This document shows positions 18,407 to 57,208 of a stretch of 64,000 bases of DNA, one piece after another; the stretch's first letter is position 1, and each line of letters opens with the position of its first letter. The notes under the pieces are model-generated. The model was not told where the DNA came from and ran no database searches. It saw only the letters and a program-made list of their open reading frames with translations. The position numbers and the translations under genes are program-made. The DNA is from Arcicella sp. (GTDB taxonomy: Bacteria > Bacteroidota > Bacteroidia > Cytophagales > Spirosomataceae), in contig JANXML010000158.1 in assembly GCA_025354645.1 (NCBI GenBank), forward strand, positions 19,316 through 83,315. Reading direction: 5' to 3'.

Positions 18407-18491
18407 AGAGAGCTGGCAGAGTGGTCGATTGCGGCAGTCTTGAAAACTGTTGACTGTAACAGGTCCTGGGGTTCGAATCCCTAGCTCTCTA
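18407..18491 (+). tRNA. tRNA-Ser (anticodon TGA), long variable arm, CCA not encoded
   Basis: Acceptor stem AGAGAGC/GCTCTCT; D-arm GGCAGAGTGGTCGATTGC; anticodon stem GCAGT-CTTGAAA-ACTGT; T-arm TGGGG-TTCGAAT-CCCTA. Confidence 0.97.
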
Positions 18492-35867: not shown

Positions 35868-38753
35868 CTATTTACCCTCAAAAATCCGTTTCACTTCATT
35901 CAATTTTAATAACGCTTCAATGGGAGACATCGTATTAATATCCAAATTTTTTAAAAGGCTTTCAATTTTTTCAGTCTTCGGATTTTTTTCAGCCTCAAAA
36001 ATTGCCATTTGAAAATTCTGTTTAGGCATTTCTCTGATGGTCTGTCTATGTTGTTCTTTTGAACGATTTTTCTCTAATTCCACCAAAATTTCACTGGCAC
36101 GATACACCACATTTTGTGGGATTCCAGCCAATTGAGCCACGTGAATTCCAAAACTATGTTCCGAACCACCTTCTTGCAACTTACGCATAAAAATTACTTT
36201 CCCATTGATTTCTTTTACAGAAACATTGAAATTCTTAACCCTCGAAAAATCATTTGCCAATTCATTCAATTCGTGATAATGCGTAGCAAAAAGCGTTTTC
36301 GGACGACAATCCGAGTGGTTATGCAAGTATTCAGCAATCGCCCAAGCAATCGAAACGCCATCATACGTACTGGTTCCACGACCAATTTCATCCATTAAAA
36401 CGAGACTTCTATCGGAAAGGTTGTTTAGAATACTGGCAGTTTCTGTCATTTCAACCATAAAAGTTGATTCTCCTTTCGAGAGATTATCGCTCGCTCCAAC
36501 TCGGGTAAAAACTTTATCGACTATCCCAATCTTTGCTTCGGTGGCAGGAACAAAACAGCCAATTTGAGCCATTAGAACTATCAATGCGGTTTGCCGTAAA
36601 AGGGCTGATTTCCCTGCCATATTTGGACCCGTAATAATGATAATCTGTTGCGTTACATCATCCAAATATAAATCGTTCGGAACGTATTTTTCACCCAATG
36701 GCAATTGTTGTTCGATTACGGGATGTCGTCCATTAATTACGTTAAGTATCTTACTATCAGTAACTTCTGGCTTTGAATAATTGTTTTTAACCGCCACTTT
36801 TGCAAAATTTGTTAACACATCAAGCACTGCAATTATCTTGGCATTTTGTTGAATTTGGTGGATATATTCGTTCGCAACGTTTACTAATTCGTTAAAAATT
36901 CGTTGCTCGATTACATTGATTTTATCCTCCGCACCCAAAATAGTTTCCTCATATTCTTTGAGTTCGGGCGTGATGTATCTCTCCGCATTTACAAGCGTTT
37001 GCTTACGAATCCAATCTTCGGGAACTTTATCTTTGTGTGAATTAGTCACTTCTAAGTAATATCCAAAAACTCGATTAAACGAAATCTTCAAAGAAGTGAT
37101 ACCCGTACGTTCAATTTCACGGTTTTGAATTTGCATCAAAAAGTCCTTTCCCGTAAAAGCAATAGATAAAAGGGAATCTAAATCTTCATCAATGCCCTGA
37201 CGAATCATCCCGCCCGCATTGCTCAAAACTGGTGGGTCGTCACGAAGTTCTTTCTGGATTTTATCCAATAAAAATTGACAAGGATTTAATTGGTCGGCGT
37301 ACTTAATCAGGATTTGGGATTTAGGATTTGGGATTTGGGATTTGGTAAAATTATTCTCTAAATTATTATCTTCTTTAACTGTTAATTGTTCACTGTTAAC
37401 TGTTAACTGTTTATATTCTGGATTCAAAACTTCATTTAAAAAATCGTCACTACTAATTTCATTTCTTTCAGTATCATCGTCAAAAATGCCTCCACCCACT
37501 GCTAATTCACGAGCATCTTTTTCTGACCGAAAACCTCCTAAAACCTCCAAAGGCTTTCCATTAATCAATTGCCAACGGATGGGCTCGATGTGAAGTAAGG
37601 CTTTTTTAAGCGATAAAAGTTCTCTTGGATTAATTCTTCTCACAGCAACCTTGGAGATAAGTCGCTCTAAATCACCAATTTGCTTCAAATGTGATTCTAA
37701 ACTTTCTCGTAATTCTTCATTTTCTTTAAAGTAAGAAACCGTATTTAATCTTTCTTGAATTTGTGATTTTTCTTTGAGGGGCAAAACCAACCATTTTCTC
37801 AATAACCTTGCCCCCATGGGAGTCATGGTGTTGTCCAAAATCTGAATTAACGGAATGCCGCCTTCTTGCTGTGCCGATACCAATTCCAAGTTCCGAATCG
37901 TGAATTTATCTAACCATACATATTTTTCTTCCTCTAAACGATTGATGCGAGAAATGTGTCCTACTTGCTTGTGTTCAGTCTCCGATAAATAGTGCATAAT
38001 CACACCCGCCGCAATGATTCCTTCGGTGAGCGATTCAATGCCAAAACCTTTTAAGTTGTTAGTTTTGAAGTGATTAGTTAAAAGTGGATACGCAAAATCG
38101 TGTTTGAAAGCCCAATCATCTAAGCCAAATGTTAGGTATTTCTCGCCAAATATTTGGGTATATTCCTGACGATTTTTTTTACAAAATAAGACTTCCGAAG
38201 GGGAAAAACTTTGTAATAATTTTTCAATATAAGACACATTTCCTTGCGAACATAAAAACTCTCCCGTTGAAATATCTAAGAATGCAATCCCCACAACTTC
38301 CTTTGAAAACGATGAAAAACTGATTGAAGCCAAGTAATTATTTTGCTTCATGTCCAACACATTATCGTTGTAGGAGACCCCAGGCGTAACCAATTCCGTA
38401 ACCCCTCTTTTCACGATTCCTTTTGCCGTTGCGGGGTCTTCTAATTGGTCGCAAATCGCTACTCGTTCGCCCGCACGCACCAATCTGGGGAGATAATTGT
38501 CCAAGGAATGATGAGGAAAACCTGCCAAATGATCGTCGGCATTTCCGTTATTTCGTCGGGTTAAAGTAATGTTCAGAATCTTTGAAGCACGAACGGCATC
38601 TTCCCCAAAAGTCTCATAAAAATCACCCACCCGAAACAGCAACATTGCCCCAGGATATTTAAGTTTTATCTGGTTGTATTGTTTAGAGAGGGGCGTTTCG
38701 TGGGATTTTTTCTCTTTATTTTTATCGTTAGGATTATTGGAAGGTCTTGCCAT
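35868..38753 (-). CDS. mutS: DNA mismatch repair protein MutS with an internal insertion
   Basis: FRVGDFYE, TGPNMAGKS, STFMVEM, MDEIGRGTST, FATHYHEL, SFGIHVA. Confidence 0.97.
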   Translation of the reverse strand: MARPSNNPNDKNKEKKSHETPLSKQYNQIKLKYPGAMLLFRVGDFYETFGEDAVRASKILNITLTRRNNGNADDHLAGFPHHSLDNYLPRLVRAGERVAICDQLEDPATAKGIVKRGVTELVTPGVSYNDNVLDMKQNNYLASISFSSFSKEVVGIAFLDISTGEFLCSQGNVSYIEKLLQSFSPSEVLFCKKNRQEYTQIFGEKYLTFGLDDWAFKHDFAYPLLTNHFKTNNLKGFGIESLTEGIIAAGVIMHYLSETEHKQVGHISRINRLEEEKYVWLDKFTIRNLELVSAQQEGGIPLIQILDNTMTPMGARLLRKWLVLPLKEKSQIQERLNTVSYFKENEELRESLESHLKQIGDLERLISKVAVRRINPRELLSLKKALLHIEPIRWQLINGKPLEVLGGFRSEKDARELAVGGGIFDDDTERNEISSDDFLNEVLNPEYKQLTVNSEQLTVKEDNNLENNFTKSQIPNPKSQILIKYADQLNPCQFLLDKIQKELRDDPPVLSNAGGMIRQGIDEDLDSLLSIAFTGKDFLMQIQNREIERTGITSLKISFNRVFGYYLEVTNSHKDKVPEDWIRKQTLVNAERYITPELKEYEETILGAEDKINVIEQRIFNELVNVANEYIHQIQQNAKIIAVLDVLTNFAKVAVKNNYSKPEVTDSKILNVINGRHPVIEQQLPLGEKYVPNDLYLDDVTQQIIIITGPNMAGKSALLRQTALIVLMAQIGCFVPATEAKIGIVDKVFTRVGASDNLSKGESTFMVEMTETASILNNLSDRSLVLMDEIGRGTSTYDGVSIAWAIAEYLHNHSDCRPKTLFATHYHELNELANDFSRVKNFNVSVKEINGKVIFMRKLQEGGSEHSFGIHVAQLAGIPQNVVYRASEILVELEKNRSKEQHRQTIREMPKQNFQMAIFEAEKNPKTEKIESLLKNLDINTMSPIEALLKLNEVKRIFEGK
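37310..37344. repeat. In-frame heptamer array inside mutS (GGATTTR x5)
   Basis: GGATTTG GGATTTA GGATTTG GGATTTG GGATTTG; encodes KSQIPNPKSQI. Confidence 0.9.
37378..37412. repeat. In-frame heptamer array inside mutS (ACTGTTN x5)
   Basis: ACTGTTA ATTGTTC ACTGTTA ACTGTTA ACTGTTT; encodes KQLTVNSEQLTV. Confidence 0.9.
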
Positions 38754-40398: not shown

Positions 40399-40416
40399 GT
40401 TATTTGGTTGAAAGTT

Positions 40417-40449
40417 AACGCAGGCAGGGTTTTGAACCCTGCCTGCGTT
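40417..40449. repeat. GC-rich perfect 15-bp hairpin (REP-like) inside the operon
   Basis: AACGCAGGCAGGGTT-TTG-AACCCTGCCTGCGTT; no U-tract. Confidence 0.8.
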
Positions 40450-40485
40450 CTCACAATAAATTTAAGAAAATTAAACTTCCCCAAA

Positions 40486-40941
40486 ATGAAAATTGATTTT
40501 ACCGTTAATGGCAATCCCCAAACAGTTGATGTGCCTGAAAATATGCCTCTTTTGTGGGTGATTCGTGATGTTTTGGATATGAAAGGCACAAAGTTCGGTT
40601 GTGGACAAGCGGCTTGTGGATCTTGCACGATTCATATTGACGGTGATGCCGTGCGTTCGTGTTCTTTTGCGGCACAATATGCTCAAAATAAGCACATTAC
40701 GACAATTGAAGGGCTTTCAACTGCTGAAAAATTACACCCCGTTCAACAGGCTTGGATTGAGGAAATTGTGCCTCAATGTGGGTATTGCCAGCCAGGTTTT
40801 ATGATGTCAGTAGCTAATTTACTGGATAAAATACCAAATCCTACCGATGAAGAAATTGATGACTATATCACGAATATTTGTCGTTGTGGAACGTATTATC
40901 GTATGCGAAAAGCCATTCATCGGGCAGTTCAACTGAAATAA
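40486..40941 (+). CDS. 2x[2Fe-2S] small subunit (IorA/CoxS-like)
   Basis: [36 protein letters not shown]. Start at ATG 40486. Confidence 0.93.
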
Positions 40942-40942
40942 G

Positions 40943-41179
40943 GATGTTCGTTTTTCGATGTTCGATGTTCGATGTTTGGGATTCGATGTCCGTTTTCGAT
41001 GTTTGGGATTCGATGTTCGATTTTTGATGTTCGGATTATCAATATTTAGAAACGTAAATAATATCAAATAACAAACATCGTAAACTCGAATATCGAAAAA
41101 CAAACATCGAAACTCTAATATCGAAAAACGAATATCGAAAACTCGAACATCTAACATCGAAAAACAAGCATCGAAAAAA
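40943..41179. repeat. Large paired inverted heptamer cassette (GATGTTC / GAACATC)
   Basis: About 13 GATGTTC-like units (40943-41032), ~40-nt spacer, about 15 GAACATC-like units (41073-41179). Confidence 0.92.
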
Positions 41180-41182
41180 AAT

Positions 41183-43363
41183 ATGAAAAAGAAAACGGTA
41201 AATCGTCGAGGTTTTATCCTCAAAACGGGCGTTGGTCTGGGGGTTTTGTTGGGCGTTGGCGTAATTGCTTGCGGACCTCTAAGAAGAACTAGTGCACAAA
41301 AAGTTGATGAAGGTCCCCCTGGATATAAAAATGAATACGAAGCCTTCATTTGGTTTGAATTACAACAAGATGGAAGCATAATTCTACATTCTCCGAAAGT
41401 TGAAATGGGGCAAGGAATTTTTACAGCCTTAGCTCAAATTGCCGCTGATGAACTTGAAATGGATTTTAAAAATATTAAAGTTGTTCATGCAACTACCGCT
41501 CACGGACCGATTGATTCGCTTTCAACGGGTGGTAGCTTAACGGTTTCGAGTCTTTATCAACCGCTTCGTGAATTGGCTGCCACCATGCGAGAAATGATTA
41601 AAATGAATGCAGCAACCATTATGGGCGTTTCTGCCAATACCTTAACCGTAAAAAACGGTGAAGTAATTGGAACAAATGCAAAATTGTCTTTTGCAGAAAT
41701 TGCCACAAAATCAACTAATTGGAATCTTAAAATAAAGGAGTCAGTACTGAAATCACCGAAAGATTTTACAGTTATTGGCAAACCACTTCCACGCATTGAT
41801 TTAGTGCCAAAGGTGAAAGGCGAAACGTTGTATGGCATTGATTCAACTTTTCCTGATATGCTTTTTGGGTCGGTTGTTCGCCCACCCGTTTTTGGAGCAA
41901 TTTTTAAAAGTGCCGAGGTTGGAAATGCTTCAAATATGCCTGGCGTAGTGAAAGTGGTGATTGAAAAAGATTTTGCAGGGGTCGTTGCAAAGTCTCGTGT
42001 GCAAGCCGAAGATGCGAAAAAAGCCTTGAAAATTAATTGGGGAATGCCCAAGAAATTAGTCAAACAAGCCGATGTTGATGCTTTGGTAAAAGTAGGAGTT
42101 GGAAAAGATGTTAAAATTCAAAAAGAAGGAAATACTGACATTTTGAAGGGGGAGGGAACAATTACCAGAGAATATTTTAGTCCGTTGGGTGTTCATGGAC
42201 ACATTGAACCAAATGGTGCAGCGGCTCATTTTCAAGGTGATAAAGTAGTTATAAAAATGAGTACCCAAGTTGCCAGTATTACCCGTGATGAAGTGTCAAA
42301 AGCGTTGAAATTAGATAAAGAAAATGTTGATATTCAGTCACAATTTTTGGGTGGAGGTTTTGGTAGGAGATTGCAAACACCTCATGCCATCGAAGCCGCT
42401 TTAATGTCAAAAGCAGTTGGAAAGCCCGTTCACGTGTTTTTTGAGCGTACCGAAGAATTTCAAAATGGGGTTTTGCGTCCACCAACGCACAATATTCTAA
42501 AAGCAAAATTAGATGCCAATGGAACTATTGAAGCAATCGAACATCATACTGCGAGTGCCGATGTTGCTTTTAATTCCTCCATTTTAGCCAACGTTTTCAA
42601 ACCATTAAGTGCTTCTTTAGCAGAAGGAATTGTTGGGGCAGATTTTGGTGCTTGGCGAGGCGGCATGATTCATTACAAAAATATCAAAAATTACAGCACA
42701 ACCGCCTACCACAAAGAACTCCCTTTTCAAACCAGTTGGTGGCGTGGTTTAGGACTTTTGGCAAACACATTTGCGATAGAATCTTTCATGGACGAACTCG
42801 CTCATCAATCTAAACAAGATCCTTTGGCTTTCAGATTAAAACACCTTGCCGATGATGAACGAGGGCAATCTATTAAAAATGTTTTAAAGGCAGCTTGTGA
42901 AAAAGCGGGTTGGGGAAAATCCCTCCCAGAAGGGCGTGGAATAGGTTTAGCCTGTTCGATTGACGTAAATACGCCTGTGGCACAAGTGGCAGAAGTTGAA
43001 ATTAAAAATGGTCAAATTAAGGTTAAAAAAGTTACCTGTGCGATTGACCCTGGAATTATTATTAATCCAGATGGCGTAAAAGCACAGTCGGAAGGAGCAA
43101 TTATTATGGGTTTGAGTGCCACACTTTTTGAGGAAGTTACCATTAAAGATGGAAAAGTAATACCAAATGCTTTTGGGTATTATCCAATTGCATACATGCG
43201 TGATGCTCCAGAAATCGAGGTCATTTTATTATCAAGCGGCGATAAACCCCGTGGTGTTGGCGAACCCCCAATTGGACCAATCGGAGCAGCAATTGCCAAT
43301 GCAGTTTTTAATTTGACAGGAAAAAGATTAAATAAAATTCCTTTGCAAATGGATATTTCGTAG
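41183..43363 (+). CDS. Molybdopterin-binding large subunit (IorB / xanthine dehydrogenase family) with Tat-like signal
   Basis: NRRGFILK, KVEMGQG, LGGGFGRR, WWRGLG, NPDGVKAQSEG, GVGEP. Confidence 0.92.
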   Translation: MKKKTVNRRGFILKTGVGLGVLLGVGVIACGPLRRTSAQKVDEGPPGYKNEYEAFIWFELQQDGSIILHSPKVEMGQGIFTALAQIAADELEMDFKNIKVVHATTAHGPIDSLSTGGSLTVSSLYQPLRELAATMREMIKMNAATIMGVSANTLTVKNGEVIGTNAKLSFAEIATKSTNWNLKIKESVLKSPKDFTVIGKPLPRIDLVPKVKGETLYGIDSTFPDMLFGSVVRPPVFGAIFKSAEVGNASNMPGVVKVVIEKDFAGVVAKSRVQAEDAKKALKINWGMPKKLVKQADVDALVKVGVGKDVKIQKEGNTDILKGEGTITREYFSPLGVHGHIEPNGAAAHFQGDKVVIKMSTQVASITRDEVSKALKLDKENVDIQSQFLGGGFGRRLQTPHAIEAALMSKAVGKPVHVFFERTEEFQNGVLRPPTHNILKAKLDANGTIEAIEHHTASADVAFNSSILANVFKPLSASLAEGIVGADFGAWRGGMIHYKNIKNYSTTAYHKELPFQTSWWRGLGLLANTFAIESFMDELAHQSKQDPLAFRLKHLADDERGQSIKNVLKAACEKAGWGKSLPEGRGIGLACSIDVNTPVAQVAEVEIKNGQIKVKKVTCAIDPGIIINPDGVKAQSEGAIIMGLSATLFEEVTIKDGKVIPNAFGYYPIAYMRDAPEIEVILLSSGDKPRGVGEPPIGPIGAAIANAVFNLTGKRLNKIPLQMDIS

Positions 43364-45529: not shown

Positions 45530-45666
45530 AGGTATGAGATATGAGGTTGTAGGTATGAGGTAGTAAAAATAAGGTATTAAAAAATTGCAGAAAATGAAAA
45601 TTCTGTAATTTTTGCCTAAAACTTCACATCTATGACCTCATACCTTATACCTACAACCTCATATCT
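45530..45666. repeat. Paired inverted heptamer cassette (AGGTATG / CATACCT)
   Basis: Left arm AGGTATG AGATATG AGGTTGT AGGTATG AGGTAGT; the right arm contains the exact reverse complement ATACCTACAACCTCATATCT. Confidence 0.88.
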
Positions 45667-57115: not shown

Positions 57116-57208
57116 GACAGGTTTCCAACCTGTTTTAAAAACTTTGAACTGACAGGTTAGAAACCTGTTTAAAAAACTTTGAACTGACAGGTTAGAAACC
57201 TGTCCTAC
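57112..57208. repeat. GTAG-type REP doublet with internal 35-bp tandem duplication
   Basis: GTAGGACAGGTTTCCAACCTGT ... ACAGGTTAGAAACCTGTCCTAC; 57134-57168 and 57169-57203 are 34/35 identical. Confidence 0.85.

Follow-up and report, generated by a model that had tools for sequence, protein, structure and literature searches.

A gene-less and probably selfish heptamer hairpin cassette of the GATGTTC/GAACATC family at an iorA–iorB operon junction in Arcicella

How does an operon accommodate 237 nt of inverted heptamer repeats between two of its genes, and where did they come from? This question is raised by a cassette at positions 40943–41179 of a 64,000-nt stretch of DNA from a freshwater Arcicella sp. 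(GenBank assembly GCA_025354645.1, contig JANXML010000158.1; hereafter the window), where it fills the gap between the small- and large-subunit genes (iorA and iorB) of an oxidoreductase. The genome that holds the window (G000) is a draft of 392 contigs, 5.36 Mb and 35.8% GC. The reading that we favour, and consider rather probable, is that of a gene-less, probably selfish hairpin cassette of a GATGTTC/GAACATC repeat family, resembling an rRNA intervening sequence (IVS), which would be looped out of the operon transcript and offer RNase III a likely substrate. Comparison with related genomes showed that the cassette arose in the G000 lineage after the split from its sister genome, that it replaced an ancestral 24-nt spacer together with the last four iorA codons, and that a new stop codon came with it or was created by it.

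The cassette fits closely between its neighbours. The small-subunit gene ends with TAA (40939–40941), a single G follows (40942) and the first GATGTTC starts at 40943; at the other end, the final repeat base (41179) is followed by AAT and then by the large-subunit ATG at 41183. These boundaries, 1 nt past the stop and 3 nt before the ATG, are those given in a preliminary description of the locus, and its account of the repeats was also largely borne out by Tandem Repeats Finder (TRF) and a repeat search. In the 5′ arm (40943–41033, plus strand), described as about 13 GATGTTC-like units, TRF found 13.1 copies of a 7-nt period with the consensus GATGTTC, as well as super-periods of 14 and 27 nt. 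The near-exact duplication reported there proved to be exact, with the 19-mer GATGTTTGGGATTCGATGT at 40971–40989 and again at 40998–41016. The 3′ arm (41060–41172, plus strand) had been described as about 15 GAACATC-like units with a 14-nt super-period, and we count about 15 degenerate GAACATC/ATCGAAA units (range 12–17): TRF returned 12.1 copies of ATCGAAA at period 7 (the GAACATC register; 41077–41163) and 9.4 copies at period 14 (41070–41194). A 28–29-nt super-period in this arm mirrors that of the left arm, such that super-periods of 27–29 nt are present in each. The units are degenerate (64–66% matches in TRF). Between the arms lies an AT-rich loop (41034–41059, plus strand, with a soft boundary to the right arm) of about 25–40 nt, in line with the ~40-nt spacer first described; it consists of degenerate repeat-like sequence without an open reading frame (ORF), and the minimum free energy (MFE) structure contains a small internal hairpin here (AUUUA-GAAACG-UAAAU). 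The repeat search listed 25 alternative inverted arm pairings with 73–91% complementarity. Therefore, the arms are able to pair in many slipped registers, as had been proposed. The window contains 17 exact copies of the heptamer CGATGTT, where 7.5 ± 2.5 are expected, and eight of the copies lie within the cassette. The cassette is indeed the largest in the window, but in the genome as a whole it ranks second to one of 341 nt (contig C226, 23486–23826).

Other explanations for a sequence at this position were also considered. A 186-aa antisense ORF (40819–41379) gave no match in Pfam and extends into the two real genes, and was rejected as coding. An Rfam scan of the window matched only a tRNA (18407–18491) and nothing in the cassette, and neither a sigma-70 scan nor the Bacteroidetes pattern TTTG-N17-21-TAnnTTTG gave a promoter match within it. 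A terminator scan of 40943–41179 found no terminator-like site, the 3′ arm preceding an A run on either strand, and the cassette is thus not an intrinsic terminator.

The preliminary description had claimed an insertion, and comparison of the orthologous junction in relatives confirmed this. A search with the large subunit identified five Arcicella metagenome-assembled genomes at 85–93% amino acid identity (all compared genomes are drafts, many of them incomplete, and genes in G000 were called by a simple long-ORF heuristic). These relatives place the organism within the Cytophagales (Bacteroidota), and a cyanobacterial source, considered because the arrays resemble cyanobacterial repeats, was rejected. 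In four of the five close relatives (L001–L004), the sister genome included, the junction consists of TAA, 24 nt and ATG only, and this 24-nt spacer has no predicted structure. The small subunit ends in ...HRAVQLK* in G000 compared with ...HRAASIKSSQQ* in the relatives, i.e. the final four small-subunit codons and the entire spacer have been lost, with the Fer2_2 domain (residues 99–171) left intact. The insert thus overwrote a tail of the small subunit that lies outside this domain. The loop was considered as a kept remnant of the ancestral spacer and rejected, because local alignments between them were no better than with shuffles.

Two further genomes are filled at the same junction. We used an iorB tree to pair occupied with empty genomes. 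The 237-nt GATGTTC-family cassette of G000 is paired with the empty sister G023 (support 87/91). G019, which has a 99-nt spacer with a 21-bp GATGTTC-family hairpin starting from its TAG stop, is paired with the empty sister G020 (100/100). G017 has ~93 nt extra, opening with another heptamer (TTGGTGA/TTAGTTA/CTGGTTA) from which its TGA stop comes, and is paired with the empty sister G014, whose spacer is 33 nt (100/100). These pairings point to three independent gains, and the simplest history would be that each gain at this one junction overwrote the stop codon. The empty state appears to be ancestral, as ingroup and outgroup have empty spacers that, compared by eye, seem homologous, and the iorA–iorB copy is comparatively young. 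No target-site duplications were found at the three filled/empty pairs of this junction. In a more distant genome (L015, in G016, contig C7, ~1930–2170), an iorA-like paralogue precedes two small ORFs and no large subunit; the first of these ORFs looks by eye like a DUF4160-type gene.

The two arms are predicted to form a very stable RNA structure. The plus-strand fold had an energy of −90.5 kcal/mol compared with −49.6 ± 4.1 for shuffled sequences (z −9.9), and none of 200 shuffles was as good. The predicted structure is an imperfect hairpin of 89 bp, of which 83 join the two arms and only 7 are G-U, with pairing in the MFE structure starting at 40943 and the outermost pair joining 40943 and 41172. 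The ten bases ahead of the ATG (GAAAAAAAAU) are unpaired (mean probability of being unpaired 0.99 over 41173–41190), and form an A-rich leader (GAAAAAAAAT, 41173–41182, plus strand) that abuts the large-subunit ATG. The genome encodes RNase III, with a sole gene match at C201:5618–6001. The earlier proposal of an IVS-like RNA hairpin is supported as far as the architecture goes, given the very strong predicted fold, the flanking of PF05635 genes by the repeat family, the heptamers of the Coxiella IVS and the RNase III gene. A separate hairpin cassette, of AATTAAA/AATTTTT units, lies at C201:5359–5511, ~100 nt upstream of the RNase III gene match.

The cassette belongs to a large population of similar elements. 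Period 7 is the commonest TRF period in G000 (800 rows, with secondary peaks at 14 and 21), and merging gave 747 period-7 arrays. The commonest unit is AACATCG (i.e. GATGTTC; 54 arrays), followed by TAACTGA, AACTAAT and ACCTCAT. Among 163 pairs of neighbouring arrays no more than 200 nt apart, 90 were inverted compared with 7 direct, and in 78 of the 90 inverted pairs at most 20% of the length lies within called genes. Polarity is fixed: GATGTTC comes before GAACATC in all 19 cases and AGGTATG before ACCTCAT in all nine. Since this arrangement is identical on both strands, the RNA has a 5′ arm rich in G and U and a 3′ arm rich in A and C whichever strand is transcribed. The cassettes occupy the intergenic gaps between co-directional, convergent and divergent genes (58, 14 and 7, respectively), roughly as the background does. 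In 51 folded co-directional cassettes, the median distance from the stop codon to the stem is 1 nt (interquartile range −1.5 to 4) and that from the stem to the ATG is 10 nt, the single-stranded tails being 46% A and 7% G. The iorA–iorB cassette, with exactly 1 and 10 nt, falls on this family geometry. Arrays without a partner also favour the A-rich strand as sense when upstream of start codons (86:43).

Copies of the family share a common TTCGATGTTCG...CGAACATCGAAA design and differ in length and unit order, and their loops are site-specific, with only 6 of 57 matching elsewhere in the genome. The family has 20–35 matches per genome in a subset of the genus, is almost absent in the rest and, of 200 other Cytophagales genomes, matched only three; it is thus a dispersed family almost confined to one Arcicella subclade. 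At C119:22742–22907, G000 has a 166-nt cassette where two relatives have TAA, 4 nt and ATG, again with no target duplication. At 14 other cassette sites, most relatives are occupied too (~60–215 nt), and the empty state is seen mainly in more distant genomes, which suggests that many cassette sites are old and turning over in place.

Several individual elements are described here in their own right. The window has a second cassette at 45530–45663, with 4.7 copies of AGGTATG, a spacer and 4.1 copies of ACCTCAT, in the polarity of that family. The 341-nt cassette on C226 is also of the AGGTATG family and begins within the C-terminal codons of a tyrosine-recombinase-like gene; the equivalent site in G013 has a short hairpin of another heptamer (GAGTGAT), indicating that the repeat family was replaced at a fixed site. 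Between the ribosomal protein S9 and S2 genes (rpsI–rpsB; C160:24309–24518), AGTTATC/AACTGAT arms bracket a 143-nt core. Unlike at the other sites, the insert here hardly varies in length among all seven relatives (209–228 nt), pointing to a conserved leader element within it. A ~43-nt palindromic repeat unrelated to the heptamers lies in the loops of two of the cassettes (C171:13705–13778 and C341:4770–4816); it is also present at C56:4122–4163, C358:6283–6325 and C171:22028–22070 and matches both strands. Elsewhere in the window, adjacent period-7 arrays of unrelated units (5.1 copies of GGATTTG and 5.3 of TTAACTG; 37310–37411) lie inside or beside a long minus-strand ORF (35868–38753), and a non-heptamer 35-nt tandem repeat (GACAGGTTACAAACCTGTTTAAAAAACTTTGAACT) at 57116–57203 has 2.5 copies at 92% identity, with a small palindrome in each unit.

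Which protein, if any, might act on such arrays? The best candidate for a trans-acting partner is a PF05635/Avd-like four-helix-bundle protein. PF05635 is an Avd-like family, some members of which are encoded in 23S rRNA intervening sequences (PMC10053308). G000 has six PF05635 matches, each of them flanked on either side, at a distance of no more than 160 nt, by inverted arrays of short units. This configuration applies to 1.3% of all called genes, and the chance of six out of six is ~5e-12. The arrays are AAAAATT, AATCCCT, AAATCAC, AACCAAT and AACTGAT-like, and these same families also have gene-less hairpins. For the GATGTTC family, the gene-bearing form is found at ilvB–ilvN in five congeners (G017, the sister G023, G015, G012 and G009), where a PF05635 gene of 119–120 aa (131.6 bits, with a weak bAvd match) has a GATGTTC/GAACATC hairpin on each side. 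This gene has a TAG stop that shares bases with the opening unit (TAGATGTTCGTTTTTCGATG...), and the closing unit extends into the ATG of ilvN. Over its initial 27 nt (GATGTTCGTTTTTCGATGTTCGATGTT), the left arm in the window agrees perfectly with the beginning of the hairpin that follows the PF05635 gene in G015. As these 27 nt are also the family consensus, the agreement supports direct descent only weakly. In G000, ilvB–ilvN is not assembled: contig C37 stops (at 1554) within ilvB, ~150 nt before its end, and ilvN is absent from the assembly, probably because the repeat broke the assembly here. PF05635 genes with AGGTATG/ACCTCAT arms occur in G022, G024 and G019.

Across the genus, the cognate PF05635 gene was present in 5 of 14 family-rich genomes compared with none of 11 without the family, several of the rich genomes being only 75–85% complete. 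Genomes without GATGTTC still have PF05635 genes, each between its own 7–9-nt inverted arrays. Three such loci (L082–L084, in G001, G007 and G006) have PF05635 genes between inverted 8-nt arrays, GGACTTTA / TAAAGTCC, immediately upstream of a conserved gene, and the design therefore extends beyond 7-nt units. In a tree of 23 intact PF05635 proteins, each deep lineage had its own repeat unit, although proteins with the same unit may simply be positional orthologues. Stop codons interrupt about one third of the associated PF05635 genes.

We tentatively extend these observations to a wider model, which we regard as possible and as having the balance of probability against it. According to this model, the heptamer hairpins would be the gene-less majority of an undescribed cassette class, whose autonomous members encode a PF05635/Avd-like protein, with each protein lineage matched to its own 7–9-nt repeat and either binding arrays of it or helping to make and spread them. 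New copies would replace entire stop-to-start spacers and supply a stop codon and an A-rich leader of their own; 23S IVSs, the short tandemly repeated repetitive sequences (STRRs) of cyanobacteria, the GGGAATC pairs of Xanthomonas and TAACTGA repeats would all be one system, and the iorA–iorB cassette would be a fresh product of the GATGTTC-specific member at ilvB–ilvN.

For the favoured reading of a gene-less, IVS-like hairpin cassette, we propose the following sequence of events. On the operon transcript, the two arms would pair to give the imperfect ~89-bp hairpin. With its base 1 nt past the iorA stop and 10 nt before the iorB ATG, 230 inserted bases would loop out, and the stop and start codons would remain spatial neighbours, leaving the 10-nt A-rich unpaired leader. 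Bacteroidota do not use Shine–Dalgarno-led initiation, and initiation is tuned by the mRNA, requiring weak structure and certain bases upstream (PMC6847099); a 10-nt A-rich single strand would therefore be a workable leader. A ribosome terminating on iorA could melt the stem base and free more of the A-rich 3′ arm, such that translational coupling would be preserved. Like the stems of 23S rRNA intervening sequences, the long double-stranded stem would be a likely target for RNase III. We rate the element as tolerated selfish or near-neutral DNA because the closest relatives lack it and nothing indicates that the operon needs it. It would persist with side effects on the mRNA, tolerated for its architecture.

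Several observations weigh against this proposal. The minus strand folds nearly as well as the plus strand (−85.2 kcal/mol, z −8.4), and there is consequently no strand-specific G-U signature of selection at the RNA level. No GATGTTC-armed cargo gene was found in G000, where wide inverted pairs enclose ordinary housekeeping genes and where the ilvB–ilvN junction is missing from the assembly. The best non-self matches to the cassette in the genome are only 69–73% identical, i.e. there is no close donor copy. Since most of the 14 other sites are occupied in relatives and very variable in length, the pattern could partly be in-place turnover. Finally, the coupling and loop-out argument is drawn from the predicted geometry alone.

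An alternative, which we consider unlikely but the strongest of the rivals, is adaptive post-transcriptional control, with RNase III processing, 3′-end protection or gated initiation setting the ratio of small to large subunit, like repetitive extragenic palindromic (REP) sequences and bacterial interspersed mosaic elements (BIMEs), Correia elements or enterobacterial repetitive intergenic consensus (ERIC) sequences. The strong predicted hairpin, the exact stop-to-start placement that recurs throughout the family and the preference for an A-rich sense strand even in unpaired arrays are all consistent with such control. There are also precedents in RNase III processing of Correia elements (PMC2649163) and in a heptamer hairpin in a 5′ untranslated region (UTR) of Haemophilus influenzae (PMC12721329). 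However, the operon of the nearest relatives runs on a plain 24-nt spacer, length and even repeat family vary between species at shared sites, folding has no strand asymmetry, and the roughly one third of associated PF05635 genes that are broken suggests decay instead of a maintained function.

It is improbable that the cassette is a conventional miniature inverted-repeat transposable element (MITE) or a REP doublet forming a hairpin (REPIN) that was moved in trans, for example by a REP-associated Y1 enzyme of the RAYT/IS200 type. Such mobility would account for a repeat family at dozens of unrelated sites in several species, the palindromic termini (TTTCGATG...CATCGAAA), the clean C119 insertion and the fixed polarity. 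It does not fit with the lack of target-site duplication or with the great variation of copies in length and unit order. A conserved MITE core was ruled out, as only 6 of 57 loops had any non-self match. Likewise, a RAYT/IS200 partner was rejected, because it showed no phyletic correlation with the family: Y1_Tnp (PF01797) is present in 24 of the 25 genus genomes whatever their cassette load, including those without the family, and is least abundant in several cassette-rich genomes.

Purely in-place growth, by 7-mer slippage and template switching between the arms of a small palindrome without any dispersal, appears decidedly improbable. In many bacteria, heptamers are reported to be the repeat unit most prone to slippage (Mrazek 2007, cited in PMC4679880 and PMC4692102), array length is highly variable between species and loops are site-specific. 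In addition, the 28-nt super-unit common to both arms, mirrored when compared by eye, suggests copying between arms. In contrast, the identical GATGTTC unit, 14-nt super-period and polarity occur at 50 or more unrelated sites, and the ancestral spacer, which has neither a GATGTTC-like seed nor structure, was replaced and not extended. We also considered that 3′-end extension at double-strand breaks might have fixed the polarity. Such a model agrees with the polarity observed, yet the super-units, mirrored by eye, argue for copying between the arms and against independent unit-by-unit synthesis, and the model stays speculative.

The remaining alternatives fared worse. It is very doubtful that the cassette is a contingency locus, in which gains and losses of heptamers would adjust iorB expression, or turn it on and off, within populations. 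Array length at shared sites does differ between species, and in H. influenzae the length of a heptamer simple sequence repeat sets HMW1A expression via an RNase III-targeted hairpin (PMC12721329). However, the Arcicella cassettes lie at housekeeping junctions (rpsI–rpsB, ilvB–ilvN and a plsX–fabH-like pair), not at surface or antigen genes, and degenerate units (64–66% matches) lower slippage rates. The preliminary description had offered a further possibility, the scar of an excised passenger gene, i.e. a small gene once present between the arms and later deleted. Gene-bearing GATGTTC-family versions at ilvB–ilvN and the decay of many cassette PF05635 genes lend this some appeal, but the idea has hardly a chance: no relative has a gene at iorA–iorB, the empty 24-nt spacer of the sister resembles that of the outgroup by eye, so the empty state looks ancestral, and the ~25–40-nt loop is repeat-like and has no ORF remnant. 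The cassette is more fittingly described as one gene-less element in a family that has gene-bearing members as well. An assembly artefact, i.e. a chimeric palindrome from metagenome-bin assembly, can practically be dismissed, for although such repeats break assemblies (the draft has 392 contigs and lacks the ilvB–ilvN junction), the arms are imperfect and unequal in length, both flanks continue into intact coding sequence, and independent Arcicella assemblies show the same architecture at many sites, including G019 at iorA–iorB.

Of the genes on either side of the cassette, the small [2Fe-2S] subunit gene (40408–40941, plus strand; 177 aa) has Pfam matches to Fer2_2 (7e-29) and Fer2, and the large molybdopterin subunit gene (41183–43363, plus strand; 726 aa) to MoCoBD_2 (5e-40) and MoCoBD_1 (3e-31). 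These domains fit with the IorA/IorB-type naming of the two genes. The N-terminal NRRGFIL of the large subunit looks like a twin-arginine translocation (Tat) signal.

To our knowledge, heptanucleotide repeats have been an unexplained excess in bacterial genomes since 1990–2007, and we know of no mechanism or function assigned to them. Our literature search found no paper on such heptamer cassettes in Arcicella and, the Coxiella IVS observation excepted, none joining dispersed heptamer hairpins to PF05635 genes. The iorA–iorB junction is a natural experiment, with an empty 24-nt spacer and three independently filled states in one genus. The family geometry suggests a rule by which 100–350 nt can be fitted into tightly coupled operon junctions without breaking them: the stem begins at the stop codon, and an A-rich stretch of ~10 nt stays single-stranded ahead of the ATG. 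The PF05635/Avd-like association points to a candidate trans-acting partner and ties the repeats to rRNA intervening sequences.

How does the cassette compare with known systems? REP/BIME/REPIN, Correia (nemis) and ERIC elements are likewise dispersed intergenic palindromes co-transcribed in operons, and their RNA hairpins can be cut by RNase III or can protect mRNA (PMC2649163). REPINs are described as a family of miniature mobile DNA (PMC3116915). These elements have a defined consensus and length, with target duplications (Correia) or a RAYT (REPIN), whereas the Arcicella cassettes are open-ended arrays of variable length with no conserved core, no target duplication and no RAYT correlation. 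They thus lack the marks of both MITEs and REPINs. The (ATCTTTC)n array in the hmw1A 5′ UTR of H. influenzae is a transcribed heptamer array that forms one arm of a long hairpin processed by RNase III; this processing affects downstream expression and is required for repeat-number change (PMC12721329). That case differs in being a single locus with perfect repeats at a phase-variable adhesin gene, with a G-rich non-repeat right arm and no dispersed family.

Closer in unit length are the heptanucleotide long simple sequence repeats (LSSRs) and STRRs. TAACTGA repeats occur in Beggiatoaceae, Cyanobacteria and five Bacteroidetes, and STRRs in heterocystous cyanobacteria (MacGregor 2015, PMC4679880, and Mrazek 2007 as cited there). 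Like these, the Arcicella arrays consist of tandem 7-nt units, are dispersed, nearly all intergenic and abut start codons in a fixed ‘forward’ orientation, with short repeat-free spacers at the equivalent sites of close relatives, and TAACTGA (i.e. AACTGAT) is the second commonest unit in G000. In contrast, the Arcicella arrays are paired as inverted arms with predicted hairpins of ~90 bp, whereas BOGUAY has 169 direct sets and one inverted set (PMC4679880). The MacGregor and Mrazek work reports neither the GATGTTC unit nor an Arcicella host, and describes no PF05635 link. Inverted pairing is found in Xanthomonas campestris and X. axonopodis, where GGGAATC repeats form 70–75 convergent close array pairs per genome (Rehm et al. 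2015, PMC4692102). These are ~90% intergenic, mostly between co-directional genes, and lie on average 28 nt past the upstream ORF (PMC4692102), compared with 1 nt past the stop for the iorA–iorB stem, which is a convergent inverted heptamer pair of the same type. As in Arcicella, length varies between related species and the G/T-rich arm comes first. However, the unit in Xanthomonas is rich in G and was investigated for its capacity to form G-quadruplexes, which GATGTTC cannot do, the host is a high-GC proteobacterium, and neither stop-to-start filling nor a cargo gene was reported.

The remaining comparison is with rRNA intervening sequences. The iorA–iorB cassette differs from a 23S rRNA IVS in location, lying in mRNA between protein-coding genes, in having no PF05635 or other ORF, in its much longer arms (~13–15 units each) and in that its cleavage is only predicted. 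In the Coxiella burnetii IVS, three or four tandem GACAGAT heptamers, with strain-variable copy number, lie upstream of the S23p ORF (Warrier et al. 2016, PMC4990558). RNase III makes the 5′ cut at the first repeat, the ORF is decaying and the element is regarded as selfish (PMC4990558). There, a stem formed by the flanks is excised by RNase III with a PF05635 gene inside; the Arcicella cassette would share the first part of this design, with its predicted stem and an RNase III gene in the same genome.

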